DNA of 64,000 nucleotides from an uncultured archaeon (GCA_964610875.1 CAZSWP010000013.1:18872-82871), one strand, 5' to 3'; counted from the stretch's first letter, positions 3,535-60,705 are shown. The notes: a model not told the origin generated them from the sequence alone. Translations and numbers: made by a program.

Positions 3535-4785
3535 TCAATACATAAGCAGAAAGACACTATATACTAGAATTTGGCATATAGTCAAAGGAATACCAATCTT
3601 TGCGAATTCTGTGAAAGAAATTGTTTCATCAAATTTTTCTGCGTTCTGAATTATGATTACATTACTCGCTGCTCCTAGTATCAGTAAATTTCCAGCAATA
3701 GTACTTCCTGCAGCTAGAGTGACTAGTTGTATTGTAGATGCACTCGTACTGGTAAAGATAGGGAGGTAGAGAGCCACTAAAGGTACGTTTGATATGAACT
3801 GACTAAGAACTACGCTTAGGACCATTATTGCTGGGATTGATGTCAAATCAAGTGGAACCAAACTAATCATATCTTGAAACACGCCACTGTTCCATACGCT
3901 AGCCATAAGAACGAACATAGCTACAAAAAACACAAGCGTCTTCCAATCGATATTGCGGAGAATTTCAGTTCTACGACTACTTAGAAGTACTACAGGTGCA
4001 GCCCCAACTACAGCTATGTAGGTCATTCTGAAATCAAATCGAGGGAAGAAGAACAACAAAAGAATCTTCAGAATAATCATAATTAGAACCAGAAGCAATG
4101 CTAGCTGAACAATTTTCATTAGTTTCCGATCATATCCATCATTTGCAGTATCAGGTTGAATAGATTTTTTGAATTCGGATTTATATAATAAACGCAAGAA
4201 GAGAAAGGAAAGGCCCATGCATAGAAGTGTAGGAATAAAGAGGAATTGGATGAAGATAAGGAATGGATTCTCAATATTTCCTTCAGTGACAATAAGTAAG
4301 TTCTGAGGGTTTCCTATCGGACTGAGCACGCTTCCAGTAGTTACACCGATGGCTAGTGTCAGTAGTAGCATTCGAGGGGAAATATCGTGTGTCTTTGCAA
4401 GGCGTATAACCACGGGAGTACCAATTATTGCAATTGTATCATTCATTAGAATTGCTGACATAAACCCAGAAACTAAAAGAACTAGCAAAACAAGTTGATC
4501 TACACCTCTTGCTTTTCCAAAAATATTCCTGGAGAGTGATTGCAAATAACCACTTCTCACTGCTGCTTCCCCGATAATGAACATACCAAAGAGAAATATT
4601 ATGACATCCAAGTTTACAGAAATTACCGCATCAATGACGTTGATTTGACCTGTGATGAGAACAATCAGAGCTCCTATTACCATTGCTTGCCATATCTCAA
4701 CTCTGAAACGTCCAATCTTTCTGACTGCGATTAAAACAAAGACAAGGCTTAATACTAATAACGAAATAACTCCGATAGTCTGCAT
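3535..4785 (-). CDS. ArsB/NhaD/SLC13-type anion permease
   Basis: Multi-TM; MNDT, SPIGNPQNLLI, ISNVP and GAASN motifs. Confidence 0.9.
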   Translation of the reverse strand: MQTIGVISLLVLSLVFVLIAVRKIGRFRVEIWQAMVIGALIVLITGQINVIDAVISVNLDVIIFLFGMFIIGEAAVRSGYLQSLSRNIFGKARGVDQLVLLVLLVSGFMSAILMNDTIAIIGTPVVIRLAKTHDISPRMLLLTLAIGVTTGSVLSPIGNPQNLLIVTEGNIENPFLIFIQFLFIPTLLCMGLSFLFLRLLYKSEFKKSIQPDTANDGYDRKLMKIVQLALLLVLIMIILKILLLFFFPRFDFRMTYIAVVGAAPVVLLSSRRTEILRNIDWKTLVFFVAMFVLMASVWNSGVFQDMISLVPLDLTSIPAIMVLSVVLSQFISNVPLVALYLPIFTSTSASTIQLVTLAAGSTIAGNLLILGAASNVIIIQNAEKFDETISFTEFAKIGIPLTICQILVYSVFLLMY

Positions 4786-6283: not shown

Positions 6284-6420
6284 ATATTCATCCTAGATTA
6301 TTTACTCTCATTTTAGTGGTAAACTGTTCAATATCATTAAAACGAATTATTGCACGAAGGTGTGGTCCAAAGTAACGAGTATTGGTAGAAAATCAAGACA
6401 AGTGAGAATATCGGTTTGAG

Positions 6421-6537
6421 AAAATGAGAGTTAGAAGGAAGGGTTTGCACCCATCCTTCTGAAACTATAGGTATACACTCTAGATACAGCGATGGATTAC
6501 TTCCGGTCCCGCTTCTTCGAACTCCTTGCGTGAAACC
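6421..6537 (-). repeat. Displaced actin 3'-end copy ([18 protein letters not shown]) plus terminator hairpin, distal copy
   Basis: Minus-strand translation of 6480-6536 equals the actin C-terminus; near-identical to 10201-10309. Confidence 0.95.
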
Positions 6538-6666
6538 TGAATCCTTCCAAAAAAGTGCGAAAGATGAAGAGAGAAATACCTAATTTCGAGTCACTCGAAT
6601 AATCTCAAGAGAATTATAAGCGGATGGTGCATTAACACAGTTAGTATATTCTGAGAGGGATATGAT

Positions 6667-7086
6667 ATGGATGTTGATGATGTTATCTCAAAGGTTCGTA
6701 GTTTCGTCAAGAAACAAGATAGTGTCATTGCAGCATATCTTTTTGGCTCACTTGCAAGAGGTACAGATAATCCAATGAGTGATATCGATATTGCATTACT
6801 ACTTACAGAAACAGAAAATGTTATTCCCAGAATTAAGGAGTTCACTGTCACACTCGCAAATATCATAGACACTTCAAATTTGGACCTCATCAGCCTCAAA
6901 CATGCAGACCTGGCTTTGAAATACAATGTCATTCGAGAGGGGATTCTTATCTATGAGAGTGATCCAGTTGAGAGGATTGCTTTTGAACGAAGGACAACCA
7001 CAGAGTATCTGGATATGCTTCCAGTATGGAGAGAGTATGATGAACATATGAAATCCAGACTTCAGGAGTATGCAGCAAGTGATTGA
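6667..7086 (+). CDS. mntA: MNT-family minimal nucleotidyltransferase antitoxin
   Basis: LFGS-x10-DID motif; overlaps the HEPN gene. Confidence 0.9.
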   Translation: MDVDDVISKVRSFVKKQDSVIAAYLFGSLARGTDNPMSDIDIALLLTETENVIPRIKEFTVTLANIIDTSNLDLISLKHADLALKYNVIREGILIYESDPVERIAFERRTTTEYLDMLPVWREYDEHMKSRLQEYAASD

Positions 7087-7492
7087 TAGTGATACAATAT
7101 ATTCTAGACTCTCTACTATTGAACAATGTATGAGAGTGATTGAAAGAACAAAGGAAAAGGGACTTCAACACTACCTCAAAGACTTGGACACCAGATTTCT
7201 GACTGAAAGAGCACTACACTTAGCCATTGAAGCGAGTATAGACATTGCTAATCATATCATTTCAAATCATGGGTTTCGCAGACCAAAAGACTATGCAGAT
7301 ATTTTTCAGATCCTTGGTGAGGAAAAAATCATTACTGAAGACTTAAGCGAGCGCCTAATTCATATGACAAGGTTTCGAACCAGATTAGTACATCTTTATT
7401 CAACGCTGGACAATGAGATTGTGTTCAGCATCTTAGAGAACGAAATATCTGATATTCTTGAATTTACAGCTGTTGTTTCAGAGATGTTGTGA
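7070..7492 (+). CDS. hepT: HEPN (DUF86) RNase toxin
   Basis: ER.LH.AIEA.IDI and R-x4-H-x-Y (FRTRLVHLY) motifs. Confidence 0.9.
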   Translation: MQQVIDSDTIYSRLSTIEQCMRVIERTKEKGLQHYLKDLDTRFLTERALHLAIEASIDIANHIISNHGFRRPKDYADIFQILGEEKIITEDLSERLIHMTRFRTRLVHLYSTLDNEIVFSILENEISDILEFTAVVSEML

Positions 7493-7538
7493 CTACACAG
7501 ATTTCTGGGTTTCTATTGTTTCCAATCAAAGTTAAAAT

Positions 7539-7663
7539 AAAATGAGATTTAGAAGGAAGGGCTTGCACCCATCCTTCTGAAACTATAGGTATACGCTCTA
7601 GATACACCGGTGGATGACCTCGGGGCCAGCCTCTTCGAACTCCTTGCGTGAAACCCACATCTT
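7539..7663 (-). repeat. Displaced actin 3'-end copy ([21 protein letters not shown]) plus terminator hairpin, middle copy
   Basis: Minus-strand 7598-7660 encodes the complete 20-aa actin exon 2 with different synonymous codons. Confidence 0.95.
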
Positions 7664-8573
7664 ATCCTTTCTTCTTCAATATCACAAACCCAATGATTAC
7701 TATAGCTACTATTACTATACCGATGCCAAGGATTACAATAGTATTGTCCACGAGTGGATATGCAGGGGGAACTGCAGATAGTAATTGTATCAGTTCTCCA
7801 GTCTGGGATATTGAAGCTACAAGGGTCGATTGTATTTTGACATATTCCCAATCATTTGGATTTGCTGTTGATGACACTCTTACAGTTAGATTCGCATAAG
7901 TAAGGAACTCCCAATGCGGTTCAATCAACATTGAATCTGCTTGTTGATTTGTGAAAATCGAATGAACAGGACTATTCCCATAATAGAACGAATAGCCAGT
8001 TTCGTCATATGACCATAGCACGAACTTCAGAGCTGAATAGCCTTCTGAAATTGGAACTTGGAGATTAGCTAATTCCAAATCACGTTCTTCGGTTTCATTA
8101 CACAGAGTGGAGATTGCATTCTTCAATGAGGCTACATAAGAATATTCAGTGATATTATCAATTGAAGTGATTGAAATAATGTTCATAATATTCGTTGAAT
8201 CATATGTTAAATTATATGTACATCGAATTGTGGAGTGCATATAGTGACTTTCATTCAAAGCCATAACTATGACTTGATCACCATAAGCAGTTCGATCAAT
8301 AAAAAGTAATGAATCATTATACCGACTCATCAGATTCCTTACAGTTGTATTTGATAATAGACCTGAGTGAAACTCTAACGCTTGATTCCAAACATCTTCA
8401 CCAAGAAGTAGCACTTCCTGGTCTCCAACATCTAGTATGAAATCGTTTGTACCGTCAGAAAGTATTGTACTTCCCCTGACCATAGTAAAACCTTCAAACG
8501 ATATACATCTAGGTATTGAGTAGCCAGATATCATTAGAAGTAATAGAATTCCAATAATGTATGATTTCTTCAT
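7662..8573 (-). CDS. Secreted, membrane-anchored hypothetical protein
   Basis: N-terminal signal peptide; C-terminal TM followed by KKKG; AT-rich. Confidence 0.7.
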   Translation of the reverse strand: MKKSYIIGILLLLMISGYSIPRCISFEGFTMVRGSTILSDGTNDFILDVGDQEVLLLGEDVWNQALEFHSGLLSNTTVRNLMSRYNDSLLFIDRTAYGDQVIVMALNESHYMHSTIRCTYNLTYDSTNIMNIISITSIDNITEYSYVASLKNAISTLCNETEERDLELANLQVPISEGYSALKFVLWSYDETGYSFYYGNSPVHSIFTNQQADSMLIEPHWEFLTYANLTVRVSSTANPNDWEYVKIQSTLVASISQTGELIQLLSAVPPAYPLVDNTIVILGIGIVIVAIVIIGFVILKKKG

Positions 8574-8585
8574 ATAATCATCTCC

Positions 8586-9908
8586 TCAGTAATTGTTAGG
8601 ACCATCATAGTCTGCAAAGTAATACCAATCCAAATGATAATGCAATTTTCCATTTACAGTGTTACCATCGTAAGGTCCCCAATCCCCTTTTCCATCGTCG
8701 CCACAAGAATATATTCTCAACCAATCGAATGTGACTAAATAATTGGCGGAATAGTACCATGGTGCATTGAATAAATCCATTGTTGCATCACAGTGAATCC
8801 AAGTTCCACTTACATAGGTTTCACACCAAGCGTGACTGAAAGTACCACCCAACCAATTCCCATCATATCCTATCATAAACCTACAAGGAATATTCAGAAC
8901 TCTGAGAAATGAACACATAACAACAGCAAACTCGTCACATACACCCCTCCAATTGTAGTTGTACGTAAACATATCAGCATTAGTGGTTTCATGCGTATCA
9001 CTGTTCATATAATATGTAATCAGACTATTAACAGCAGACGTTAGTACCTCACTAGAATATTCAGGATAGCTAATACAGTTATCTACTAAATACGCTGCTT
9101 GGTATATAATAGGCCATTCTGTAGGCCTAAATAATGCACGTGTGATTGGAATACCAAATCCATCTCCTGAATTACCCTCCCAATAGTAATTAGGATTTTG
9201 TGAAAGAGAACTCATATCGTCATTTGGGGGCAGTCCACCATATGTCTGAAGGTCTGATAAACCATATCGAGAAATGAATTCGTATCCCCATGTTTGACTT
9301 CTGTATACACTATCATAGCGTAGAGTTCCCGGAGCTGTTCTTAGACCATCTGGTTCAATAGAATCTGGAGTAACCCCATCATAATAATATGCTTTTCCAG
9401 ACACTGATACTTGAGCCCTTTTTAAACCGACAGTCGCGGTTGAGGGCAAATAGCAAGAGAGTGTATTTACACTACTGTAGCCAGATGCTCTTACTGACTT
9501 GGTTTTATAGACTTCTCGAATTTCCGAAGGGCCAGGACAATTGTCATAGCCTTCGAATACTAGGGTCACATCTGCGTAAATGTATCCTGAAAGATATACC
9601 GTAAATTGGACATTGAAATTCTCAGTTCTTGTCCATAAGCTGGGAATGGACGCGGATATTTGGAAACTACGTCCAAAGCTGTTAATAGCATCCCCTTCAC
9701 TATGTTGATTACTTGTTTTTTCCGAGTAGAAAAAACCATTCTGATCCTGCTTAACTTTAGGTATATGTTTAATCGAAGGAATTGATTTTCCCAACTCATT
9801 TGATTCAACAAGTGATTTAGGATTTTTCGGAGGCATAGTGATTGGTGATAATAGCAACGTACCACCTATCAACATGAAAATCAATATTGACTTAGCTCTA
9901 TTTTCCAT
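8586..9908 (-). CDS. Secreted transglutaminase-like (papain-fold) protein
   Basis: GVCDEFA...LR.L.IP.R, HAW.E and W..CDAT triad motifs; signal peptide. Confidence 0.85.
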   Translation of the reverse strand: MENRAKSILIFMLIGGTLLLSPITMPPKNPKSLVESNELGKSIPSIKHIPKVKQDQNGFFYSEKTSNQHSEGDAINSFGRSFQISASIPSLWTRTENFNVQFTVYLSGYIYADVTLVFEGYDNCPGPSEIREVYKTKSVRASGYSSVNTLSCYLPSTATVGLKRAQVSVSGKAYYYDGVTPDSIEPDGLRTAPGTLRYDSVYRSQTWGYEFISRYGLSDLQTYGGLPPNDDMSSLSQNPNYYWEGNSGDGFGIPITRALFRPTEWPIIYQAAYLVDNCISYPEYSSEVLTSAVNSLITYYMNSDTHETTNADMFTYNYNWRGVCDEFAVVMCSFLRVLNIPCRFMIGYDGNWLGGTFSHAWCETYVSGTWIHCDATMDLFNAPWYYSANYLVTFDWLRIYSCGDDGKGDWGPYDGNTVNGKLHYHLDWYYFADYDGPNNY

Positions 9909-10200
9909 TTGTTTTTTCCCACTACTACAATTCTAGACATTGTGTAGTAAGGAAAAAACTCGATTTTGGCTATTAAAGAGTTCACTCTTTCAAAATAGTC
10001 TTTTGAATGCAAATCTGTCATTCTTACGACTTACTTTTTATTCAGATTCTATTTTCTCTTATAATGTTACATCAGGAATATATGTTACTAAACATTTGGC
10101 CAGATGCTTTGTTTTACTCAGGTATGGCAATTTGAAAATCTTGCAATATATTGATTCAAGATGAATGTATGAAAAGGAAGGATTACTATTTTTTCTTAGA

Positions 10201-10309
10201 AGAAAATGAGAGTTAGAAGGAAGGGTTTGCACCCATCCTTCTGAAACTATAGGTATACGCTCTAGATACAGCGATGGATTACTTCCGGTCCCGCTTCTTC
10301 GAACTCCTT
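10201..10309 (-). repeat. Displaced actin 3'-end copy ([15 protein letters not shown]) plus terminator hairpin, proximal copy
   Basis: Minus-strand 10262-10309 encodes the last 15 actin residues. Confidence 0.95.
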
Positions 10310-10354
10310 TGATAAAATCCATTAGAAGAGATTGAATATTTCGGAAATACAATT

Positions 10355-13105
10355 TCAGTAGTATTCTTCATTTTTGATTTCCAGATATTCTCTAGTAGAA
10401 GTTGGTAGCTGAACAATATAACTGGATGGCATGTGTTCTTTTATGATTCTCATCAATTGTGAGAATTCTAAAGGATCCATTTCTTCATCAACTTTCATTT
10501 TCAAAAACTGCAATAAAGAATCCAATAACTGATCATCTATAAAAAAGGGTTCAATAGATAACATAATTTCGATTTCTTCATTTTTTGTTTTTGATGACTG
10601 TAGTTTTGAAATATATTCATCTCTTTTTGAAAGGATGGCATCTCGTACTTTTCGTGATTGATAGAGATGGGGAAAAGATACCAATTGCTTTATTGGGTTG
10701 GTATGCTTTATTGGTTTGAGAATCAAACTCTCAACATTGTCGATTACCCTCTTATCTCTACTAGCATGTTTTAAGGAACATTCAAAGGATTTGTGAATAA
10801 TCCAATCAGTGGCATCAACAACGACATTTTCAAATACGATTTTCTTGAATATTTCTCTAGAATGTCCCGAGAAATGAAATCTATGGTCTATTGTCCCTAT
10901 TACATCCAATGGGTTTTCTGAGAGTATTATTTTTTCAAAGAGTGCCTTCAGGATGGAGGGATGTTCAGTAAGAATTCTAAATTTCGAGATTGTTTCTACC
11001 ACTCGCCAAAAGTTATCCTCATCTGTAAACATAGCAATGATATCTTCTATTCTTTCTACAATAATCTCTATAAGCTCGTATTTTCTCTGAAATTTGGGAA
11101 TAAACGATATTGCATTTAAAATGGATAAATCAATATGACTGTTTTTCAAATACTTAATGAAAACCATATTTAGAAGGTTAACTGTTGTGTTATCTTTTGT
11201 TCTAACAAGATTCTCTATTTCATATGTCTTGATTCGTTCCGAATTATCTCGAAGTGAAAGAGAAATTTCAAGTAGTCTTTTGCTAATGGTAGGTTCATTT
11301 TGAGTAGTAATCAATCTTTCTGGACGGTGAGATGTATTTTTAGTTATTTCTTCCAATTGTTTAGCTATAACTTTACCAGCTTGAAGATGGTCTTTCAAAT
11401 AGTCACACGCCCTAATTTGCCGCTCAATTGAATCAAGCGTATACCTCTCTCGAATTAATTTAATTTTAGATGGGAATTGCTCAATGAAGCCATCAATGCG
11501 ATTCATTAGCCATTGGTTATCATAGAAGTCTGGTACAGAAACTACTTCTCTGATAAATGAGATGAACTCAACAATATTATCTTTATATACAACTTGCTCT
11601 TTTTTTAGTTTCAGTTTGAGAACCAATTCTCTACGAAAACATACATGGCGCATTACCTGACATATTTTGGATAATGTCCAGTACATCGGATATTTCCTGA
11701 AGGAATTAACAACCAAACTGACTACATCCTCCTTTTTTTCATTGGGAGCAACAGAATAGAGAATATTCGCATATTTTGCTAGGCCCCTCCCTTCATGATA
11801 CCTATCAATCTGGCACTTGAGTTTTTCATAACTTTTTTTTGATTCAGAAAGTATTCCTATATAATATGGGCAAGCATTTACATATTCAAGTAAAGCCTCA
11901 GGGTTGACAGAAGTTGTTATGGCTTTAAGTAACTCATCTTGAGTCAATGTTGCGGATGTGTTTCCTGGAATCAAATGAAGAGCAGTTTCAACAATCATTT
12001 GCTCGAAGCTGCTACTAGGAAGATGTCTCCTATTAGGAGAGGCTTTCGAATCTCTTTTTGTAGCATAAAAAAAGCCATCTAGGAAATTAGATAATCCAGC
12101 TGCTGTAATAACATCAGGTCCTTCGGACTGTTCTGCAACTTTCCATAGAAGCAGAATAGATGCGGCACGTCTTTGCCAGATTTTACTTTTCAGTCCATTT
12201 CTAATTCTTTGTATCATAGACGGATTCTCTATGACCATCTGAACAATCTCATGTATAGCTTCATCTGTAGGCTCATATTTTTCACTATTATCTGTAAGAT
12301 CAAATCCATACAATGTAAATTTCTTTGCAATCCATCTGAGAATTCGCCACACTGGAATGTCTATTTTATGTTTGATTGCATAGAGAATTAGTTCTGCGTG
12401 AATCTTATTCGAATTGACTATCTCGATTACTGCATTTCTGATTTTGGGACTAACATAATACTGGGCTAGATAACAAGCGCCAGCTGATATTTCTGTATCA
12501 GAGTGTTTTATGCAGCGAAGCAATTCATCTGGACTAATTGGTATCGACAGATTGTCAACCCATTTTTTCATAGCCACATTATTTCCATGGAACGGGTCTC
12601 TACAACCATATCTCATTATTTCTTCTATAGCTTTGCTAGTATTACGTTTTGATTTTAGTAAGATCACCTCTGAACACAAATCATAGTCATCACCCATATT
12701 TGACACTGAGTAGTAATCACCTGGATCCTCACCTAAGCCTTCTAAAACTGCAATGGTTCCTTCGTTCAGTCCACCCCATTCTTTGTATAGATAGTTTTGT
12801 AATTTAGGAATCACTTCTTTACCCATAGATATTATTCCATTTACAATTCTATCATCAACACAGCTGCCACAATCCCACTTTCTATGAATCCAGTACAACT
12901 CTTTCACAAGTTTGTCAAAGGCATCTAATCCTTGAAGTTGAACAATAGCTTCTATAGCAAGTTCTACCAAGTCACTATCTCCTGCCCATGGACTAACCCA
13001 ATCCAGAAGAGATAGAAAACTCTCCATTTTCGAAACGATTTCAGTTCTATTATATCTGATTGCTATTCTGACAGCAGACTCCAAAGCTTCATAGCTTGTA
13101 TCCAC
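10355..13105 (-). CDS. Large helical (HEAT-like) hypothetical protein
   Basis: 916-aa AT-rich ORF; in-frame TAA at 13109-13111 just upstream. Confidence 0.65.
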   Translation of the reverse strand: MDTSYEALESAVRIAIRYNRTEIVSKMESFLSLLDWVSPWAGDSDLVELAIEAIVQLQGLDAFDKLVKELYWIHRKWDCGSCVDDRIVNGIISMGKEVIPKLQNYLYKEWGGLNEGTIAVLEGLGEDPGDYYSVSNMGDDYDLCSEVILLKSKRNTSKAIEEIMRYGCRDPFHGNNVAMKKWVDNLSIPISPDELLRCIKHSDTEISAGACYLAQYYVSPKIRNAVIEIVNSNKIHAELILYAIKHKIDIPVWRILRWIAKKFTLYGFDLTDNSEKYEPTDEAIHEIVQMVIENPSMIQRIRNGLKSKIWQRRAASILLLWKVAEQSEGPDVITAAGLSNFLDGFFYATKRDSKASPNRRHLPSSSFEQMIVETALHLIPGNTSATLTQDELLKAITTSVNPEALLEYVNACPYYIGILSESKKSYEKLKCQIDRYHEGRGLAKYANILYSVAPNEKKEDVVSLVVNSFRKYPMYWTLSKICQVMRHVCFRRELVLKLKLKKEQVVYKDNIVEFISFIREVVSVPDFYDNQWLMNRIDGFIEQFPSKIKLIRERYTLDSIERQIRACDYLKDHLQAGKVIAKQLEEITKNTSHRPERLITTQNEPTISKRLLEISLSLRDNSERIKTYEIENLVRTKDNTTVNLLNMVFIKYLKNSHIDLSILNAISFIPKFQRKYELIEIIVERIEDIIAMFTDEDNFWRVVETISKFRILTEHPSILKALFEKIILSENPLDVIGTIDHRFHFSGHSREIFKKIVFENVVVDATDWIIHKSFECSLKHASRDKRVIDNVESLILKPIKHTNPIKQLVSFPHLYQSRKVRDAILSKRDEYISKLQSSKTKNEEIEIMLSIEPFFIDDQLLDSLLQFLKMKVDEEMDPLEFSQLMRIIKEHMPSSYIVQLPTSTREYLEIKNEEYY

Positions 13106-13541
13106 TGTTTATAGAAGTGGAATAATGTTCAAATCTGATTCAATTGTCAATTATCCAAGAAGAGAGAGTCTTGTCTTGCACCACTGAACCTACACCTTTT
13201 CTTATGGTGTGAAAAATAAAATAGAAATAATCTGAGCGATGGTTGTAGACATCACCCAGTGACCAAATATTCTGATTGCTTTTCTCTTGCTACCCCTAAC
13301 CCGTATCTGTCCTATTCCAAACACCTAACTCCATTCCACTCCCATGAGAATGGAAGACATAATCTCATATGAAATGATTGATTTCTTTGAATACAGAAAC
13401 CAGAACTCTTTTCTACTACCACTTAGCTAAACATTATTGGTTAGGAGTAAGATTCTGGTGTTCCTGGCGTAACAGGGCCACACCTTTAGTCCTTGGTAGG
13501 AGATTGCATCCCTTGCTTACTCCCAACAATAGCACAAGTGG

Positions 13542-14072
13542 GTGAGGTCTATGTCCATTGAAGGAATTGATGATAGAGGTTTACTGGTCGAGCCATTAGA
13601 GCAGAGCTGGTTCAAGAAATTCATTACAGTCTGGTCAAATCCGAGCTTTGGACAGGTCTATGTTAACAAGAATAGCATGACTGTAAACATCTATCTCGGA
13701 TTCAGGATGCTTCAGGGAAAGGTTCTCATCTGGTCCGCAAAGCGAAATATCAGATGGGTAACAAAGAAATGGTTCAAGCAAGGACATCAAATGCTTCTTT
13801 ACAAAAACAAGTCCGTTGTAAAAGCCAATCTGATAGTTGAAACTCCAGCAGGAGAGATCATTCCAGATGAGGAGTTCTACAAGATAAGTGATAGAGATTA
13901 TAGCATCCTTCGTGAGTATTTCAATAGGAAAGAGGTCAGAGATGAACTGAAAAGATTGGCTGAACAGATTGAGAGTAAGATATACCTGTTCAGGGTTGGA
14001 ATGCCAGTCGAGTTCATTCTTCCCATTATCATTCCAATCATTGTAGTGCTACTGATTATTTTATTTTATTAG
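13542..14072 (+). CDS. Hypothetical protein with C-terminal TM
   Basis: 176-aa ORF; GGTGAGG RBS-like motif near the start. Confidence 0.6.
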   Translation: MRSMSIEGIDDRGLLVEPLEQSWFKKFITVWSNPSFGQVYVNKNSMTVNIYLGFRMLQGKVLIWSAKRNIRWVTKKWFKQGHQMLLYKNKSVVKANLIVETPAGEIIPDEEFYKISDRDYSILREYFNRKEVRDELKRLAEQIESKIYLFRVGMPVEFILPIIIPIIVVLLIILFY

Positions 14073-14288
14073 TGATACACTAATATCCTGAATGCATCAA
14101 TTTGTACAAAAAGATACAAGACATTATATTGTTTCCGAGTTAATCAATGGTGAGAGGGCAATCTCGTTGGTCTTTCCATATTTTGAAACAAACCTTCCTA
14201 TGTGTTTCATCAAGGCAATATTAATTGAACATCTAGGAGTCTGGGATGGTATAGTAGAATCGAAAAAAGAGTCCATCTGACCTTTTTG

Positions 14289-14477
14289 CTACTCCACCGT
14301 AATCTGCACCGTCACACTCCCATCCTTCGACGGAATCAACACCATCCGCGTTTCAATGACCGCCCCAGTCCTCACCGCTCGCTCATGCAACGGCTTCGGC
14401 ACGGTCAGGACTTCCTGATTACCGAGCGTGAACACGCTCATCACAAAGCTCTTCGTGTTCTCCTTGTGTCGTCCCAT
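14289..14477 (-). CDS. Small protein, possibly AbrB-like fold
   Basis: 62 aa, GC-rich, GGAG RBS; 'LTVPK.L' motif reminiscent of AbrB/MazE. Confidence 0.45.
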   Translation of the reverse strand: MGRHKENTKSFVMSVFTLGNQEVLTVPKPLHERAVRTGAVIETRMVLIPSKDGSVTVQITVE

Positions 14478-14794
14478 GTTCGTCGATAGCTCCTAGACTA
14501 TACAGGAATCTCCCAGTCAGCAGTGAACCGATGTCCCTGTGCAATCAGGTTCCGTAACCACTCTAATAAGAACCGATTAAGTGTAGACTTGTTCTTGATG
14601 TCAACTGTGTCGGGCGTAGGATAGGAATCGCCAAGCTGGAGTGCCTTGGCAGACTATTTAAGCCCCACACGAATTACTAAGTAATAAAGAGGTCTCACTG
14701 CACGGTCATGTGAATCGCCAAGTTCTATGCGCTGTGTGGTGGGGCCACCTTCCAGCTATCCATAGAATACTCTTTCTTTTCAAAAAGGCAATGA

Positions 14795-14835
14795 GAAAAA
14801 TAGATTGTGAAGGTGAGCCTTGCAGCTCTACCTTC
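14795..14835 (-). terminator. Hairpin plus U-run after the actin stop
   Basis: GAAGGTAGAGC-TGCAAG-GCTCACCTTC then ...TATTTTT; homologous hairpin in each displaced copy. Confidence 0.6.
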
Positions 14836-14850
14836 TAAACTAACAACCCG

Positions 14851-16020
14851 TTAGATACATCGGTGAATTACTTCAGGTCCAGCTTCCTCAAACTCTTTCC
14901 GAGATACCCACATTTACCACGCAGCAACGGAAATCGGTGCCGCTTTTTGGAACGTTTTCAGCGAAGCTAGAATGCTTCCGCCAATCCAGACAGAGTATTG
15001 TCTCTCGGGTGGAGCGATGATGCGTACCTCGATGTTCTCTGGGACTAGTTCGGTGATCTCCTTATGGAGTCGTTCCTTGAGTCCTGGGAACATGGTTGAA
15101 CCGCCTGATAGTACAATGTTGGCGTACAGGTCACGTCGCAAGTCTACATCGCAAGCCTTGATCGACTCGACAATGTGTTCATCCAGTGGGATTGAGTCTA
15201 GACCTATTGCGCTTGGGTTGAAGAACAGCTCGGGTGCTTGGAACCTCTCTGCACCAACAGTGATTACTTCACCGTCTGGTAGCATGTAGGGTTTGTCAAC
15301 ACCAGCCTTGTCGGCCACTGTCCTCTCGCGCTCTGGGTCAAGAGCAACGTAACAGAGTTTCTCTTTTACATCACGGACAATCTCTTTCTCTGCACCGCTC
15401 ACGAATGAGTAACCTCTCTGTCTGAGAAGTCTGCGCAGGTACTCGGTGATGTCACGACCAGCAAGGTCGATTCGTTTGATTGCGTGGTTGATTGAGAAAC
15501 CTTCGTACACAGGTACAATGTGTGTGACACCGTCACCAGAGTCGATGACGAGACCTGTGGTTCTTCCGGATGCGTATAGTGATAGCACAGCCTGTGTTGC
15601 GACATAGACGGCAGGTATGCCGAAGTTGTCGAACATGACAGATGCCATGCGTTCACGATTCTCTCTTGGGTTGTATGGTGCTTCAGTGAGAAGCACGGGG
15701 TTCTCGCTGGGATCAACTTTCAAGTCGTTGTAGAAAGTGTAACTCCAGATTTTTTCGATTGCGTCCCAGTCGTCAATTACACCGTGTGTAATTGGGTAGA
15801 CGAGTCTGAGCACACCACGGAGGTTGATTGCCTCTTCACCAATGTAGTAATCCCTTGTGTAGTGATCGACGTCCGTCATAATGGACTCGTATCGTGGATA
15901 TCCAATTAGTGTAGGCCATACACTTCGTGGCTGATCTTCACCAGCGTAACCGTTCTTACTCAGGCCAGTACCATTGTCAATGACAATTGGTTTACTGCCC
16001 ATGTAATCTTCCTCAGCCAT
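14851..16020 (-). CDS. Asgard actin (Lokiactin-type), 379 aa after removal of a 30-nt intron; exons 16020-14945 and 14914-14851
   Basis: [32 protein letters not shown] and [12 protein letters not shown] motifs; the conserved tail [20 protein letters not shown] resumes in frame after the insertion. Confidence 0.95.
14915..14944 (-). other. Candidate 30-nt BHB-type intron in actin mRNA
   Basis: Contains an in-frame TAA; internal stem GCGGCA/UGCUGC; central helix CCAA/GUGG flanked by 3-nt bulges AAA and UAA; removal gives FQK-MWV. Confidence 0.8.
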
Positions 16021-16524: not shown

Positions 16525-17334
16525 ATGTTCAGACTAAGTACAGACGACGTGGTACGCAGAGAGATAGAGAGTGTACGAGCCCGACAGGTCATACTGGACC
16601 AATTAGAGGGAGGTCCAAAGACAGGGACTGAACTGCGAGAAGCCATTCGCAAAGATATGACGGGACAGGTCATTGAGAAGAAAGGTAGACGAGTCAAGGA
16701 TGAGAAGATTGTTGTTTCAGACCCGAAACTCTATCACAACACAAGCCATCTTGAGAAGATGGGTATCATAAAGAGTAGGAGGCAGTCAAGAGAACGCGTC
16801 TTCGAACTCACACTTCATTCATACCATCCTGTGAGACGAGCATTACGCGAGTTGGGAGTGGTTGAAGTAGAAACCCCGGTGGCTTTTGTTGTCAACATGA
16901 AGATGCCAGACGACCAGAGACCTTTCGCACTCTGGTTGAACAAGACAAAGGCTTTCAAGCCACACAGTCTGATGTTCTTCACCGAGGAACGGGGATGGAA
17001 AGGCCAGGTACTGAAGGCCTTTGACAGATATGCCACACGGCCATGGGACATTCACTGGCACAGTATACCCTTGGAGATCACTGGTGCCTATGAGGATGCA
17101 CAACATGGAAACATCCGAGCAGTCTACGAATTCATCCAGGACAGGATAGTAGAGTTGATACCTACACACGATGTGGTCATCGACCTCTCAATGGGTACAC
17201 CCTTGACCTTGCTGGCAATGGCACGTATTGCTGAAGAGTACTCACTCAGAGCAGTTCACGTAGAGAACTATGAGGTGGACAAAACCCGCATCATACAGTA
17301 CTATCCTAGAACCAGCGATACCAATGCGTGGTAA
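16525..17334 (+). CDS. Winged-helix protein with a C-terminal CARF-like Rossmann domain
   Basis: N-terminal IL..L..GPK...EL / LY.....LEK.GII wHTH; C-terminal VVIDLSMGT..L.AM motif. Confidence 0.6.
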   Translation: MFRLSTDDVVRREIESVRARQVILDQLEGGPKTGTELREAIRKDMTGQVIEKKGRRVKDEKIVVSDPKLYHNTSHLEKMGIIKSRRQSRERVFELTLHSYHPVRRALRELGVVEVETPVAFVVNMKMPDDQRPFALWLNKTKAFKPHSLMFFTEERGWKGQVLKAFDRYATRPWDIHWHSIPLEITGAYEDAQHGNIRAVYEFIQDRIVELIPTHDVVIDLSMGTPLTLLAMARIAEEYSLRAVHVENYEVDKTRIIQYYPRTSDTNAW

Positions 17335-17346
17335 GAGGAATAGACC

Positions 17347-18036
17347 ATGAGCCCTGATAGCATCCCCACACTAAAATGGGAGAGTATCGATATCAAAAAA
17401 GAACTAGAAGTGATCGTGTCTATCATAGAAGATGAGGTACAGAAGACACCAAGGCGTAACACACGAACTCTTGGTAAACTGAGAAGGTGGAAGACCGAGT
17501 GTAAACAGATTCAAGTAGGACTGCAAAAAATCAAGAAACATATCAAACCACATCTTCAGGGTCTCTTCGGACTCGACTTGGACAGGAATGGATTACTCAC
17601 TGCTGCAATGTTCCAACCTAGTACTAGGAACTTATTCCTCGAGATGCGAATCCATTACGTTGTATCAAAAGAGCGCCTCTTGGATCTTCATACAGTAGAT
17701 GAACTGGCATCATTGAGCGACTTTGCAAAAGTACTTGCACTCTTGGGAGATGCAGCAATAGACATGGCAATCTTACACCATCTCTGGCAACCAAGAGCTG
17801 TGGATGTTGGTCAACTGACCCAAGAACGTGCTCGAATCGTCAGTAATGAACATCTCGCAGAAAAATGCGACGAATGGAAACTCTATGAGAATAGAATTCA
17901 TTTCGACCCTGCTACACCATCAAAGTCAGAGATAGAACATATCAAGGGTACACTGGTGGAGGCAATCTTTGGAGTCATGTATTTAGAAGCAGGGTATAGA
18001 GAGGCACTAGAGAGTGTTGTGTATCTACTTGATTGA
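17347..18036 (+). CDS. Ribonuclease III-domain protein (divergent)
   Basis: LALLGDAAID, R..IVSN..LA and GTLVEAIFG.MYLE motifs; no dsRBD. Confidence 0.75.
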   Translation: MSPDSIPTLKWESIDIKKELEVIVSIIEDEVQKTPRRNTRTLGKLRRWKTECKQIQVGLQKIKKHIKPHLQGLFGLDLDRNGLLTAAMFQPSTRNLFLEMRIHYVVSKERLLDLHTVDELASLSDFAKVLALLGDAAIDMAILHHLWQPRAVDVGQLTQERARIVSNEHLAEKCDEWKLYENRIHFDPATPSKSEIEHIKGTLVEAIFGVMYLEAGYREALESVVYLLD

Positions 18037-18037
18037 C

Positions 18038-19546
18038 TCAGTATTCAGAGAATCCATATTCATCTTCACGATGAGAAGTATTTCTTACTACAGGAAACAT
18101 CCTCTCAAATTTCGACCTCACTCTAGATGCTGTACTCGGGTCAGAATACACACGAATTGATGGAATGGTCCTTTGTTGCTGACTAAGTACCTCTAAGAGA
18201 GGACGACCCTCTTCGGTATCACTCAATCTTACAAGATCAAAGCCATCATCACCACCAACAAGGACATCTATTTGACTCAGAAAATTCTCTCCAAGAACGG
18301 GATTGACTACATCGATAATGACTTTCCCCTCATCTTCCTCCAATTCCAATTCAGCCTCTATGAGAGCATCAATATCACTGTTCATATTTAGAATGCGTCT
18401 CTGAACATCAATGTCAAATGATGAAATAGGTCTTGAAGTTATAACTTTGAACAATCGTCGATATCGGATACGAGCCACATACTCCCTGACAAAATCAATA
18501 TCGGATTCTTCTAACCACCGATACAAATCTGCGTCAGTCATTCTCGTGAAAAAGCCGATACATTCGTTCTTTGAGAGGTCCTCTTCTCGCATCCTGAAGT
18601 AGGTCGCCTTTGAAATGAGAGCTTCAGCGACTCGTACAGCATGATGGAAATAGAGATCAGATAACATCCAACTCCTACTAAGTATCAATGCTTCAAGTGA
18701 GTGTAAAGCTTTTAGCATGAATGCACGTTTGAACATGCCATCATCATCCCTCACAACACGGTTTGTTAGAAGTACTCTCTCTGCAGGAAATACGCCAAGT
18801 TCAACCCCACTGAAATGAGCATCACGAATCAGATAGTCAGTCTTGTCAATGTCCAATGGGCTGTCAACAAATTCAGAGAGTAATCTAAGTAGAGGCTCCG
18901 AGGACCTTCGTTTCAGGATGGATACAACTGATTGGGGATCTATATTATTTCTTGAGAGGGTATCAGCCACATCACTATGTAGAATTAGAAATTCACCCAA
19001 ATCAGTATGACTGAGACCGGACCAACTATGTAGTGAGAACTCGATTGTGTGAGAAGTAGGAGGGTGTCCAATATCATGAAGAAGTGCAGCGGCACGAAAG
19101 AGTTTCTGGTGATGTTCATCCAAGAGCTGGGAAAGAGGTTTGAAACGTGCACTATCCATATCGTCACAATAATTCACAACGCGGATACTCTTCTGAGCCA
19201 AGAAATTAGTGCCTATGCAATGTTCGAATCTTGTATGAGTTGCTCCAGGATACACAATATGAGCAGGACCAAGCTGTTTTACATAACGTAGTCGAAGGAA
19301 CTCCCATCCCGAAATTAAATCCAACTCCCACGGTTCCAACATAATAGCCCCATGTATTGGGTCTTGGATTGCTTTCTGTCGAGTATGGGGTTCACCAAGT
19401 GCCAATATTCGTTTGTGTTCTATTATCCGTTCAGTTATTTTCGACCAATCAGCACCACCCTGCGCCTTTGCATCCTTTATCCGGTGTTCGCACAATCCAG
19501 TTAGTCGTATCAGATTCACAAGATCTGTATCAAACCCTTCCAGCAT
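18038..19546 (-). CDS. HD-domain phosphohydrolase (SAMHD1/dNTPase-like)
   Basis: DPIHG, RLR...QLG...VYPGA.HTRFEH, LLHDIGH and DK.DYL.RD motifs. Confidence 0.9.
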   Translation of the reverse strand: MLEGFDTDLVNLIRLTGLCEHRIKDAKAQGGADWSKITERIIEHKRILALGEPHTRQKAIQDPIHGAIMLEPWELDLISGWEFLRLRYVKQLGPAHIVYPGATHTRFEHCIGTNFLAQKSIRVVNYCDDMDSARFKPLSQLLDEHHQKLFRAAALLHDIGHPPTSHTIEFSLHSWSGLSHTDLGEFLILHSDVADTLSRNNIDPQSVVSILKRRSSEPLLRLLSEFVDSPLDIDKTDYLIRDAHFSGVELGVFPAERVLLTNRVVRDDDGMFKRAFMLKALHSLEALILSRSWMLSDLYFHHAVRVAEALISKATYFRMREEDLSKNECIGFFTRMTDADLYRWLEESDIDFVREYVARIRYRRLFKVITSRPISSFDIDVQRRILNMNSDIDALIEAELELEEDEGKVIIDVVNPVLGENFLSQIDVLVGGDDGFDLVRLSDTEEGRPLLEVLSQQQRTIPSIRVYSDPSTASRVRSKFERMFPVVRNTSHREDEYGFSEY

Positions 19547-56676: not shown

Positions 56677-57996
56677 TTATTTTATTGTGCTGACATGCAC
56701 ACTACATGACACGCAAGGGTCATACGATCTAACAACGGTCTGCAGTTTTTCAGCGATTATTTTCGAGTCATTTACTCCTTGCTCTAAGAGACCCTGTGTC
56801 ATTCTCTGAAGGTCAGCTTCCATAATTGGGAGGAACATGGCAGTCGGGGTGATAATATCGGCTTCTGATATGCGGCCTCTCTTGTCAACACCTACAGTGT
56901 ATGCCAGAAGTCCACGAGGTGCTTCTGTGACTGAAACACCTGTCCCGCCATCGGATATTTTTAGTTTCTTTCGTTTTTCGTCCTTAAGAGAAGTGACAAG
57001 GTTTCGTGCAATCTCTTCGGCTCTGTGTACAAAATAGACAAGTTCTACTGCTTGAGCAAAGTTATTTGCCATGGGATTGTTGGGGTCCAACTGATTCTCA
57101 TACATCTTTGCAATATCTTTTGCCCGACCACTCATGGTGTCCTTGAAAAGTGTAAAGCGGGAGAGGGCGCCGGTCATGAATGGTTCTGAGTTATAAGAAC
57201 CATGTTTAGCAAAGGAGTGTGGAACAACAGTTTCCGAGATACGCATCTTATATGCATCCTCTTTGAACTTTCCTCCACCGGTTGAATGAATTGTTGAGCC
57301 AAGCATGCTGTATTTTCCATCATATGGTTCCAATGCAAGATGGGTGCGTTCTGCATCCACTTCTGGCCAGTGTCGGAATGACACTAGATGTTCAAGAGCT
57401 TCTTCTGATTCATTACGCAATGCACGAAGACGGTCTGAGAGTTTCTCAAGCTGTTTCTTGGTCGGCAGCTTTCCAAATCCACCCATGAGGACATTCTCTT
57501 GATGGATGTATCGTGAACCAAGTACTGTCTGAATATCAGCACCAATGTCTTTCAAGCGCATACCAGCAGAAAGCAAGTCAGGATGTTCTTTATTCATGGA
57601 GAATCCATCAGGAAATCCCAGAAAGTCTGGCAACGCTAACAAGAAGAGATGAAGTGCATGACTCTCGATAATGTCACCAATATAGAGTAATTCACGCAGA
57701 GTTACTGTCTGTTTGGATGGTTTAAGACCAATAGCATTCTCAGCAGCCTCAACGCCTGTGATTTTATGAGCGGCAGCACAAAAAGAGCAAACTCGTGGGA
57801 AGACAGCAACAGCTTCCTCAACAGGTTTTCCTAGAGTAATTGCTTCAAAATGCCGAGGTCCTTCAAAAATATTCACCTTGGCAACAGAGACCTTGTTTCC
57901 CTTCAGTACAACTTCAATTCCCGCTTTTCCTTCAATTCGGGCTATGTGGTCTACTGAAATAGGTGAGGTGATTGTTTTCTTCTTTGTTTTGGACAT
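56677..57996 (-). CDS. hydA: Group 3b [NiFe] hydrogenase large subunit
   Basis: RIEG, R.CSFC..AH, EAPRG and YDPC.SCSVH motifs. Confidence 0.93.
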   Translation of the reverse strand: MSKTKKKTITSPISVDHIARIEGKAGIEVVLKGNKVSVAKVNIFEGPRHFEAITLGKPVEEAVAVFPRVCSFCAAAHKITGVEAAENAIGLKPSKQTVTLRELLYIGDIIESHALHLFLLALPDFLGFPDGFSMNKEHPDLLSAGMRLKDIGADIQTVLGSRYIHQENVLMGGFGKLPTKKQLEKLSDRLRALRNESEEALEHLVSFRHWPEVDAERTHLALEPYDGKYSMLGSTIHSTGGGKFKEDAYKMRISETVVPHSFAKHGSYNSEPFMTGALSRFTLFKDTMSGRAKDIAKMYENQLDPNNPMANNFAQAVELVYFVHRAEEIARNLVTSLKDEKRKKLKISDGGTGVSVTEAPRGLLAYTVGVDKRGRISEADIITPTAMFLPIMEADLQRMTQGLLEQGVNDSKIIAEKLQTVVRSYDPCVSCSVHVSTIK

Positions 57997-58812
57997 TCAT
58001 TTCTTCCCTCCATAGACTCTATCAAGCATCCGTTCGATGTTTGGATCGTGCGCTCCAAAGATACGCATCCGATCTCTGACAAAATTCTCATCGAGGCCTT
58101 TTTCTTTGAAGGTCATAGCTAGAGAATCAAACCAAGCTGTATCATTGGGTACTGGACCTCTACATCCAATACAGGGGACATCGTACTTGATGCATCGTGC
58201 CTTGCAACCAGCTGTTGTTACTGGTCCCAAGCAAGGTGCACCACGTTCTATCAGGATGCAGGGATTGCCTGCAAGTCGACATTCCGCACAGACAGGATAG
58301 TCCTTAGCTTCCGGGAATGTGCCGAAGAGGAAAGTGGATATCATATACATTATCTCATCCTCTTCCGGAGGACATCCGGGTAAGAAATAGTCGACATCAA
58401 CATGGTGAGCAATCGGGGTCGCTTGTAGGGGTTTCATGTCTATTTTCCCATCACCATATACCTTGGATTGAAGCTTCTCAATGTCCATCTCATCTTCAGC
58501 CCAGCTCTGTACACCACCATTCACGGCACACGCACCAATCGCGACCAAGATACGACTGTGTTTTCGAATCTCCATGAGCTCTTCTAGATCCTTCTCTGTA
58601 GATACCGAGCCTTCTACAAATGCAATATCTACATCAGCTGGATGTTTACTAGCACTTGAAAGCATATAGAAACATTCGAAGGTCACTGCATCTGCGATGT
58701 CCATAATCTTCTGTACAGTTGCCAATTTCAGTTGACAACCATAACAGGAAGTGAGTGCAAACACACCTACTTTTGGTTTGCAGTCATCTCTGCATTCATC
58801 GATTACCGCCAT
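57997..58812 (-). CDS. hydD: Group 3b hydrogenase small subunit
   Basis: TSCYGCQ, EGSV, GACA, PGCPP and C.GCRG motifs. Confidence 0.93.
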   Translation of the reverse strand: MAVIDECRDDCKPKVGVFALTSCYGCQLKLATVQKIMDIADAVTFECFYMLSSASKHPADVDIAFVEGSVSTEKDLEELMEIRKHSRILVAIGACAVNGGVQSWAEDEMDIEKLQSKVYGDGKIDMKPLQATPIAHHVDVDYFLPGCPPEEDEIMYMISTFLFGTFPEAKDYPVCAECRLAGNPCILIERGAPCLGPVTTAGCKARCIKYDVPCIGCRGPVPNDTAWFDSLAMTFKEKGLDENFVRDRMRIFGAHDPNIERMLDRVYGGKK

Positions 58813-59676
58813 CTAAATCAACCCCGGAATGCTTGTGATTGCATAGTAATCGAACACAGGTCCATCCTTACAGGCGTATTTCCACGATGTGGCAGTGCCT
58901 ATGTTACAATGACCGCATTTCCCTACGCCACATTTCATACGCCTTTCAAGTGTTACAAAGATGTATCTTGGGTCATATCCCTTCTCAACAAGATAGTCAA
59001 ACATACCACGATACATAGCTGGAGGACCACACATTGCAACAGCACAATTCTTTGGGTCAACATTTGCTTTGTCCATGTGAGCTGTTGCTCTTCCATGCAA
59101 TCCTTTGTATTCAGGGTCTCTCGTAGCACTCTGAACGATTGCTATATTCTCTGCTGTGGCTATATCCTTCATAGCTTCGATTTCTTTCTCGAAGAGAAGT
59201 TCTTTCCCAAACTTTGCAGTGTTAATGATAGTGATATTACCGAATAGCCACCGGTTATCGATAGCATAGAGAAAAACTGAACGAAGAGGAGCCATTCCTA
59301 GACCTGCTGCAACACAGAGTAGGTCTCTACCGTGGAACTGCTCCATCGGGAATCCATTCCCATATGGTCCTCGAATACCAACCATCTCACCAGGAGATAA
59401 CTCGTGAATCTGTGAAGTGACACGACCAGCATTTCTTATACAGAGTTCAAAGAAACCCATCCTTCTTGCTGATGAGCAGATGGATATCGGTACCTCACCA
59501 AGCCCGAGAATGGACACTTCAACGAACTGTCCAGGTTTAAATCGCCAGTCTTGGGCCACATCAGGGTCTTCAAATCTGAAGAGGAAGAGGTCTTCAAGAT
59601 CTGTTAGTGGATATCTTCTGAGAAGACGACATTTGTGTGTTTCATAGATGCTTCTATCATCATGTGTATGTACCAT
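58813..59676 (-). CDS. hydG: Sulfhydrogenase gamma (FAD/NAD(P)) subunit
   Basis: PGQF, RGPYGNGF, CGPP.M and CG.GKCGHC motifs. Confidence 0.93.
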   Translation of the reverse strand: MVHTHDDRSIYETHKCRLLRRYPLTDLEDLFLFRFEDPDVAQDWRFKPGQFVEVSILGLGEVPISICSSARRMGFFELCIRNAGRVTSQIHELSPGEMVGIRGPYGNGFPMEQFHGRDLLCVAAGLGMAPLRSVFLYAIDNRWLFGNITIINTAKFGKELLFEKEIEAMKDIATAENIAIVQSATRDPEYKGLHGRATAHMDKANVDPKNCAVAMCGPPAMYRGMFDYLVEKGYDPRYIFVTLERRMKCGVGKCGHCNIGTATSWKYACKDGPVFDYYAITSIPGLI

Positions 59677-60705
59677 CTATTCTACCCCCTTATAGCCTGC
59701 AATTTCCATGAGATTGCTTCTGAATTTGATGTCAGCAGGACAGAAGTATGTACAACGTCCACAGCCAACACAATATGCGGTGGTTGTTTCAGCACAGTAT
59801 GCATTCTTGCATTGGTATCTATTGAAGAATCGACTCTTTTTTGTTGGGCGAAAATTATGGGGCCCAGCTGTTAGTCCATGAGTACGGAATTGGCAGGAGT
59901 CCCAACGACGTATTCTTGACCCTGTCCGTCCATCAATACTGGGCAGGTCAATAACATCATAACAGCGACAGGTCGGACATGTAAGGGTACAGTTCCCACA
60001 ACCCAGACACTTGTCAGCCTCTCTATCATACATTGGATGCTCCATTCGTAACTCCAAGAAATATCGGAGATTATCCCAGTTTCCTTTTACCGGAAACATA
60101 CTAGCCTTCTTTTCTTCAAATTCCTCTAAATATTTGATATCAGCATCACAGATCTCTTCGAAGAGTTCAGGATATGGATCAATTAGTTTGTGTCCAGTAA
60201 CTGTTCCTACACGAACGAGATAACCATCTGGCAGTTCATGGAAGAATAGATCGAAACCAGCATCAACAAACTCGATTCTGCGGACGTTACAGAAACAATA
60301 TTCATCAGGAAGGCAGGATAGTCCAATGATTATTCCATTCTTTCTCCTTTTCTCATAATATGGGTCAGGTAGGTCATCGAGAAACTTTGCATCCATAATT
60401 CTGAGTCCAACTATATCACATGCATGGACCCCGAATAGGATTATACGCTCATCCTTGGGTTCCATAGGATAGAGTTCGACGCGGGCGGTATCGAAGGTGA
60501 ACATTGTTTCCTCTTCGGGATAGAAAAACCTCCTTGGCGGGCGTATCGTTCTGTTATAATCAAACGAAACGTCACTTACGTCATTTACCTCACAGAAGTC
60601 ATAGAACTTTTCACTAATCTTCTGTGGCGCATATAGAGTCCCTTTTTGCTTGAGCAGGTCTAGGAATCTATACGTGTTTTCCTTGGAGATTTTAATATAC
60701 CTCAA
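59677..60705 (-). CDS. hydB: Sulfhydrogenase beta (Fe-S) subunit
   Basis: CL.CG.C...CPTC.C, WDSC and CVGCGRC...CP motifs. Confidence 0.93.

Follow-up and report, generated by a model that had tools for sequence, protein, structure and literature searches.

The window analyzed here is a stretch of 64,000 nucleotides from the genome of an uncultured archaeon of the Thorarchaeota (G000), in which the actin gene is interrupted close to its 3′ end. The gene is organized as follows:

14851-16020, minus strand: actin gene, split by a 30-nt insert at 14915-14944
14945-16020, minus strand: actin exon 1, 3′ end TTC CAA AA (Pfam Actin, E=1.4e-122)
14915-14944, minus strand: 30-nt insert with an in-frame TAA, very likely a BHB intron by its comparative fold; site occupied in six genomes
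14851-14914, minus strand: predicted actin exon 2 (A plus the last 20 residues), the active tail; codon use atypical for the gene
14809-14835, minus strand: 3′ UTR hairpin and T-rich tail of the active copy, terminator-like by its fold

The open reading frame at 14914-16020 (minus strand) encodes an actin (Pfam Actin, E=1.4e-122), and the exon 1 protein is 90-97% identical to 75 Thorarchaeota actins. The actin frame runs through KTFQK into nine unrelated codons (AAPISVAAW) and a TAA, directly followed by ATG TGG GTA. From this ATG the sequence encodes the 20-residue actin C-terminus, which in ~70 related actins continues uninterrupted after the K. The insert lies 63 nt from the actin stop codon, and the span singled out in an initial annotation of this DNA (14851-14975) runs from exon 2 through the intron into the end of exon 1. 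The hairpin in the 3′ UTR of the active copy is kept across the family, with stems that vary. The region at 16525-19546, divergent from actin, holds a PadR/wHTH-like gene, an RNase III-domain gene and a converging HD-domain gene (Pfam).

Comparison with relatives indicates that the insert is very likely a BHB intron. In G000, CCAA of exon 1 pairs with GUGG at the intron 3′ end, and relatives pair CCAG with CUGG, forming a 4-bp central helix. A first bulge of 3 nt (AAA or AAU) is followed by an intron hairpin of 6-9 bp, and a second bulge (UAA, UGA or AAA) directly precedes exon 2. Given an alignment of the six intron-bearing sequences, RNAalifold recovered the central helix, the 3-nt bulge and the insert hairpin unprompted – and also predicted an outer exon-exon helix. 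The helix (columns 26-29/56-59) and the bulge (columns 30-32) are present in all six sequences. Within this small set of six, 96.7% of cells pair, four pairs are altered on both sides, and none of 500 shuffles matched the observed pairing; sliding the partners by 1-3 columns left pairing at only 28-47%. Among the compensatory differences, G022 has UCAA/UUGA where others have CCAG/CUGG, and one hairpin pair is G-U in G000 and U-A in the others. The central helix of G000 itself consists of three pairs and an A.G mismatch, and only one U-A pair closes its 3′ bulge, where RNAalifold draws a 7-nt loop. As modeled, the G000 motif is a relaxed, HBh′-like form and not a textbook BHB.

The geometry of the insert predicts where it would be removed. 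In pre-tRNAs the first two anticodon bases (34-35) lie in the central helix and the cut falls at 37/38, so that cleavage follows the second bulge base (PMC4090602). Applied to the actin insert, this rule takes out exactly 30 nt. The archaeal splicing endonuclease would cut after the second base of each bulge and RtcB would ligate the exons, giving CAA AAA AUG UGG (CAR AAA AUG UGG across relatives), a predicted junction that equals the intronless alleles at the protein level (Q-K-M-W). An mRNA left unspliced would yield an actin without its last 20 residues. The genome encodes the corresponding machinery, with two matches to the splicing endonuclease domain PF01974 (E=3e-29 and 3e-19) and one to RtcB (E=1e-176). 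Two EndA paralogues have been taken as the two-subunit form (2026 preprint, 10.64898/2026.10.13.758758), and two-subunit and epsilon EndA forms cut non-canonical motifs (PMC5829648); the pair in this genome suggests a broad-specificity two-subunit enzyme. We infer from these features that the actin insert is spliced. Two DNA and two RNA public runs were assembled at the locus, the best-matching run being a microbial-mat metagenome. The RNA contigs came from relatives only (93-95% identical), and their junction is the intronless AAG ATG TGG; no joint spanning the intron appeared in these runs.

We observed a second insert of this type in the window, at 34852-34881 on the plus strand, where 30 nt with an in-frame TAA split the YGQ|MTAG of a hutU-like gene (hutU encodes urocanate hydratase). 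Its geometry is the same as that of the actin intron – a helix ACGG/CCGC with three of four pairs formed, bulges ACA and AAA, and a 7-9-bp hairpin – and we found no repeat or displaced copy nearby. A loose-rule BHB scan returned 40 hits in 83 kb that were mostly noise and failed to recover either true case. Under stricter settings (length 30 nt, stem ≥6 bp) the scan returned 16 hits against 5 in a reversed control, and the only convincing hits of the strict scan genome-wide were actin and hutU. One candidate at ~58828 was rejected as the boundary of two abutting operon genes: at 56677-60705 on the minus strand four ORFs abut in a single frame, each stop directly followed by the next start, and this arrangement explains the false positive. 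When metagenomes were scanned with a degenerate pattern for the intron-to-exon-2 junction, 94 stretches matched and one alone was an actin; it is G014-type and shows no displaced tail in its 6.6 kb. A phylum-wide actin search found an internal stop in six Thor genomes only, among the matches listed, and five weaker matches were discarded as genes cut by contig ends.

Downstream of actin, the window contains three displaced copies of the actin 3′ end, separated by gene cassettes. The 5′ limits of the tails are counted from the ATG of exon 2:

10311-14850, no strand assigned: cassette 1 (newest), 916-aa ORF and small ORFs
10355-13105, minus strand: 916-aa ORF of cassette 1
13542-14072, plus strand: orphan 176-aa ORF of cassette 1
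14289-14477, minus strand: G+C-rich 62-aa ORF of cassette 1, no family hit
about 10196-10310, minus strand: displaced actin tail A (proximal), 5′ limit +14
7664-10195, no strand assigned: cassette 2, transglutaminase-like 440-aa ORF and 303-aa membrane or secreted ORF
about 7532-7663, minus strand: displaced actin tail B (middle), 5′ limit -3 (AAG ATG TGG)
6538-7531, no strand assigned: cassette 3, MNT (6667-7086) and HEPN/HepT (7070-7492) toxin-antitoxin pair
about 6414-6537, minus strand: displaced actin tail C (distal), 5′ limit +5, adjoining conserved host flank

The tails were detected as direct repeats of 114-126 nt at 10196-10321, 7532-7657 and 6414-6539 that are 86-91% identical (find_repeats family D1: 86-87% identity over 126 nt), and a search of the genome against itself recovers them at E=1e-38 to 1e-60. 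Each repeat comprises the last 15-20 actin codons, a stop codon, and a hairpin with a T-rich tail. The initial annotation had described this arrangement from the sequence, and its description holds: the middle copy starts at the intron position and is fused to the stop codon of a cassette gene (its AAG overlaps the TAA, 7662-7664, of the ORF at 7662-8573), the other two begin about 2 and 5 codons into exon 2 (distal +5, proximal +14), and a hairpin with a T-rich tract lies 3′ of each copy.

The cassettes differ in how much can be said of their cargo. The 440-aa ORF of cassette 2 matches Pfam Transglut_core (E=1.7e-13), and the cassette 3 pair matches Polbeta (MNT, E=1.5e-19) and HepT-like (HEPN, E=1.9e-30). 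The ORFs of cassette 1 have no Pfam, PHROG, PADLOC or PDB match, and the 176-aa ORF has no homologue among 5.8 billion proteins. A G+C-rich patch at 14280-14500, which encodes the 62-aa ORF within the otherwise AT-rich cassette 1, looks compositionally foreign. A syntenic transporter gene (3535-4785), found 3-7.5 kb from the start of actin in 10 other genomes, is 11.2 kb away in the window, a shift that corresponds to the inserted length.

The active exon 2 differs in codon use from the rest of the gene. Its GC3 is 0.35 against 0.51 for exon 1, and it uses TTT and CGG, neither of which occurs among the 359 codons of exon 1 (TTT in 0 of 10 Phe codons, CGG in 0 of 24 Arg codons). The contrast drawn in the initial annotation between the active tail (AAA, TTT, ATT) and the displaced tails (AAG, TTC, ATC) is likewise borne out, and codon use along the gene makes the active exon 2 look imported. 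Variants are linked along each tail of G000, in the coding part and the UTR alike. This linkage and the foreign-looking active exon 2 favor a reading in which the tail is replaced from the junction onward at each insertion; a crossover between the coding part and the UTR was rejected on the same linkage. The earlier suggestion that the intron-bearing end came with the latest element is supported in that the active exon 2 looks imported, and fails for the intron. The newest cassette did not deliver the intron, because its junction (+14, where the proximal tail begins) lies downstream of it; four intron-bearing relatives, moreover, lack a displaced coding tail within 15 kb. Everything upstream of the +14 junction, the intron included, was already present or is a later arrival.

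We compared actin and up to 15 kb downstream of it in 76 Thorarchaeota genomes and observed 33 displaced tails in 23 genomes, together with 30 complete cassettes of 0.3-5.2 kb. We have little doubt that the actin 3′ end is a cassette hotspot. The cargo includes TPR, beta-lactamase-fold, methyltransferase, nitroreductase, deaminase and radical-SAM/HD proteins, two GNATs, and MNT-HEPN pairs. Homologues of the MNT-HEPN pair lie inside the actin arrays of G049 and G101; the cassettes concerned (window 6667-7492, L035 2279-3101, L111 418-1246) share 50-74% protein identity and belong to three genera, which implies that the cargo travels with the actin-tail repeat. The actin contigs of five genomes (L058, L077, L101, L047 and L090, from G077, G074, G004, G059 and G101) end inside or just after exon 2. 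Repeated tails would break short-read assemblies at this point, so arrays are probably under-counted in short-read MAGs.

The 5′ limits of the 33 tails span -4 to +30, and +11 is the commonest value (seven tails). Thirty begin 1-30 nt inside exon 2, that is, 3′ of the intron site, and three begin at -3 or -4 (G049 distal, -4; G047 distal, -3; G000 middle, -3), with none further upstream. The only tail reaching further upstream belongs to an actin paralogue that forms part of the cargo in G045. About 80% alike, the three -3/-4 tails carry lineage-typical residues and come from different species. Because the adjoining cargo differs, each seems to record a separate event at a single point, 2-3 nt from the predicted splice site. 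By a post hoc estimate, the chance that a random site in a gene of 1140 nt lands no more than 3 nt from that edge is <1%.

Several loci depart from the simple arrangement. The G045 cassette (L089, 2128-3249) encodes a 373-aa actin paralogue that is 41% identical to actin and whose final 19 codons reproduce the tail of the main actin almost perfectly, which suggests recombination between paralogous gene ends. In G022 a small cassette is followed by only the 3′ half of a terminator, which places the insertion limit beyond the stop codon. In G049 it is the middle copy that has the native-looking hairpin of the genus, and neither simple crossover model fits the arrangement; the order of events is obscured by gene conversion between tails. 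A match of the G049 distal tail flank (TTTCAAAG) to the exon-1 end of G022 was set aside as 1 nt out of register and too short.

We found no sign of an integrase or nuclease carried by the cassettes. A search with PF00589 detected no integrase inside or near any array examined (G000, G047, G049, G068, G045, G086); G000 has a single match, on contig C52, and G047 has none. No LAGLIDADG, HNH, GIY-YIG, other nuclease or integrase was detected in ~35 cassette ORFs (Pfam, PHROGs, PADLOC, PDB), nor did the neighbors of five other intron-bearing actins contain a nuclease or integrase match. A nuclease that escaped recognition could be among the orphan ORFs of cassette 1. Four repeat units contain no attC-like fold; their only structure is the terminator hairpin (z = -0.5 to -3.2), and the unit ends are unpaired. 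DNA methyltransferase genes directly follow two intron-bearing actins (L102 1305-3731 in G019 and L043 13466-14695 in G012), and near the methyltransferase G019 also encodes a 469-aa protein with a C-terminal winged helix, with which it may form a restriction-modification pair.

The same intron occupies the same site in six of the 76 Thorarchaeota actins (G000, G012, G014, G019, G022, G023), which belong to six genera. The exon-1 tree follows genera and places intron-bearing actins beside intronless ones (G023 with G008, G022 with G049, and G019 with G004 and G041). Short stretches around the intron depart from this pattern. G023 differs from its congener G008 at 15 of the final 48 exon 1 positions and at 4 of the first 18 nt of exon 2, compared with 4.4% elsewhere; from G014 it shows no difference between -20 and +20, against 18% in the gene body. 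The mosaic in G023 indicates that the intron moved between lineages with short co-converted exon flanks. Lateral transfer of this kind also probably occurred in G022, which is 3.5% divergent from G049 in exon 1, yet has 4 differences in the last 10 nt of that exon and is 16% divergent in exon 2. Flank divergence among G012, G014, G019 and G023 is about half of body divergence; across all 15 intron pairs the flank-to-body divergence ratio (0.84 vs 0.94, p=0.34) is not significant.

Intron presence and cassette presence, whose correlation had been put forward as a check on a protective role, showed no association. Counting as evaluable the genomes with at least 3 kb of flank or with a tail seen, displaced tails are present in 22 of the 57 genomes without the intron and in 1 of the 5 with it (Fisher p=0.64); with five intron-bearing genomes and relatives that are not independent, the missing association is weak evidence. 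Of the five intron-bearing genomes other than G000, four are free of displaced coding tails within 15 kb, and the fifth has too short a contig to judge.

With moderate confidence, we favor an explanation in which a BHB intron and a separate cassette hotspot meet in the last 66 bases of the Thorarchaeota actin gene. Cassettes would insert one after another at the actin 3′ end throughout the family, each supplying a replacement actin tail and terminator hairpin and pushing the older tail downstream; the window would hold three successive cassettes of this kind, in an order that we infer. The scattered insertion points and the absence of an element-borne integrase argue against a single site-specific enzyme, and recombination would be homology-driven or otherwise trans-acting. 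The intron would form the upstream edge of the recombination-prone zone and would itself have moved by short-patch recombination. Its coincidence with the -3 breakpoint would then reflect a shared recombination-prone site rather than a demonstrated protective function.

The initial annotation had proposed that the intron disrupts the integration target and blocks further insertion. In a form resembling collaborative homing, a site-specific nuclease or recombinase would act at the intronless K|M junction, and an incoming intron and tail would split its recognition site, preventing re-cutting. Such a process would account for the three apparently independent tails at -3/-4 with none further upstream, for lateral intron movement with co-converted flanks like that of homing introns, and for the foreign look of the active exon 2. 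We nonetheless consider it unlikely: G047 and G049 have -3/-4 tails and yet intronless active genes, four intron-bearing genomes lack a displaced coding tail, the intron would pose no obstacle to the 30 insertions downstream of it, the now intron-bearing G000 allele received a cassette at +14, and neither the ~35 cassette ORFs nor the surroundings of the other intron-bearing actins yielded a nuclease or integrase. Comparison with 75 related genomes, a small sample, gives no sign that the intron protects actin from insertions; the present data do not favor a target-site shield, and we regard it as doubtful. That the 30-nt intron is a DNA-level mobile element homing into the actin K|M junction and immunizing the allele against an unrecognized nuclease or recombinase likewise seems improbable. 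A related scenario gives the intron no protective role: it would have formed the 5′ end of the arm with which the middle element, the one that displaced tail B at -3, joined the G000 gene, and the newest cassette would have arrived later at +14; elsewhere, cassettes would have been lost by recombination between tails, leaving the intron behind. Tail B does begin exactly at -3 and is intronless, the active segment from -3 to +14 contains the CGG never used in exon 1, G022 keeps a small cassette with a terminator remnant, and the patchy distribution, intronless congeners and mosaic patches fit lateral arrival. The G023 patch is, however, short (about -48 to +18) and its UTR matches that of the intronless G008, which points to short-patch conversion rather than a cassette as the source of that intron; nor are the exons 2 of intron-bearing alleles mutually closer than expected, as the ratio given above shows. 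We judge this route quite improbable.

Two further alternatives concern the RNA. Were the 30 nt a scar or recoding site and not an intron, the gene would produce a truncated actin, or readthrough or a hop over the insert. An insert frame that stays open until the stop in six of six genomes and encodes a similar peptide would suit this, but exon 2 is intact and under purifying selection in all six, changes within the insert preserve RNA pairing rather than the peptide, and the geometry predicts the exact junction, so such an outcome is very unlikely. A translational hop from AAA to AAA was rejected, as it lands out of frame. It is more unlikely still that the displaced tails serve as alternative 3′ exons joined to exon 1 at the RNA level. 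All tails do encode the same 15-20 residues, but a hairpin and T-tract follow every copy, tails A and C start without the first 2-5 codons and offer no matching BHB partner sequence, and stops or substitutions occur in several of the displaced tails of other genomes. Capture of a tail from cleaved 3′ exon RNA was ruled out, as the AAG found in the -3 tails is the sequence of intronless alleles.

BHB introns in protein-coding genes are a textbook rarity, and our literature search found only that of cbf5 in Crenarchaeota; it yielded no publication on such an intron in protein genes of Asgard archaea, nor any on insertion at the actin 3′ end or on the actin tail as a landing pad. The intron of the crenarchaeal cbf5 pre-mRNA (Yokobori et al. 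2009, PMC2738675) resembles that of actin in being a short BHB intron in an archaeal protein gene with a patchy distribution among relatives that implies gain and loss. The cbf5 intron is removed by the tRNA splicing endonuclease and a ligase, as would be expected for the actin intron. The latter differs in its host gene (an Asgard, thorarchaeotal actin), its length of only 30 nt and its position so close to the stop codon, in the mosaic flanks that indicate DNA-level lateral transfer, and in being accompanied by a second intron of the same size in hutU.

The cassette arrays share features with several known systems. As in integrative elements at the 3′ ends of tRNA and protein genes (attL/attR), an element-borne tail restores the gene, and partial copies persist as direct repeats in tandem arrays. 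The actin cassettes differ in having no integrase inside or nearby, in junctions that spread over >30 nt with no single crossover site, and in their tiny size (0.3-5 kb) and cargo-only content. Integron cassette arrays, Archaea included, carry cargo cassettes of one or two genes, an IntI gene, and attC sites that fold end to end. The actin arrays likewise consist of one- or two-gene cassettes split by a recurring ~120-nt element, with GNATs, toxin-antitoxin pairs, methyltransferases and unknowns as cargo. In contrast to integrons, however, their recurring element is a copy of the host gene end, has no end-to-end hairpin and has no adjacent IntI. With collaborative homing and the mobile ORFs of fungal mitochondria they share a replacement 3′ end, a displaced old end, an intron at the insertion point and co-converted flanks; they differ in that the actin loci examined contain no endonuclease gene and most cassettes carry ordinary cargo. 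Randau and Soll reportedly proposed in 2008 that archaeal tRNA introns protect against integrating elements, a proposal that the 2026 preprint cites. The actin intron resembles that case in lying at or next to an integration target; it differs in interrupting a protein gene, and the small comparative test shows no depletion of insertions in intron-bearing alleles.

These results place a very likely BHB intron in actin, the hallmark eukaryote-like gene of the Asgard archaea. Relatives of this lineage are already known to have numerous tRNA introns of unexplained origin. How tRNA introns arrived in Asgard archaea is a central open question (2026 preprint, 10.64898/2026.10.13.758758), and the mosaic exon flanks described here are sequence-level evidence for such an intron moving between genomes as DNA. 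Should the intron be mobile, this would open a route for tRNA-type introns to spread through Asgard protein genes, and an immunizing mobile intron would be the first protein-gene example of an intron acting as a shield against integration. The conserved actin tail, for its part, receives accessory genes in over one-third of the evaluable Thorarchaeota species, serving as their landing pad. Displaced actin tails may also exist beyond the Thorarchaeota: in another Asgard family, the last 43 actin residues stand alone at G109:C27:26619-26747, 65% identical, on a contig without the gene.
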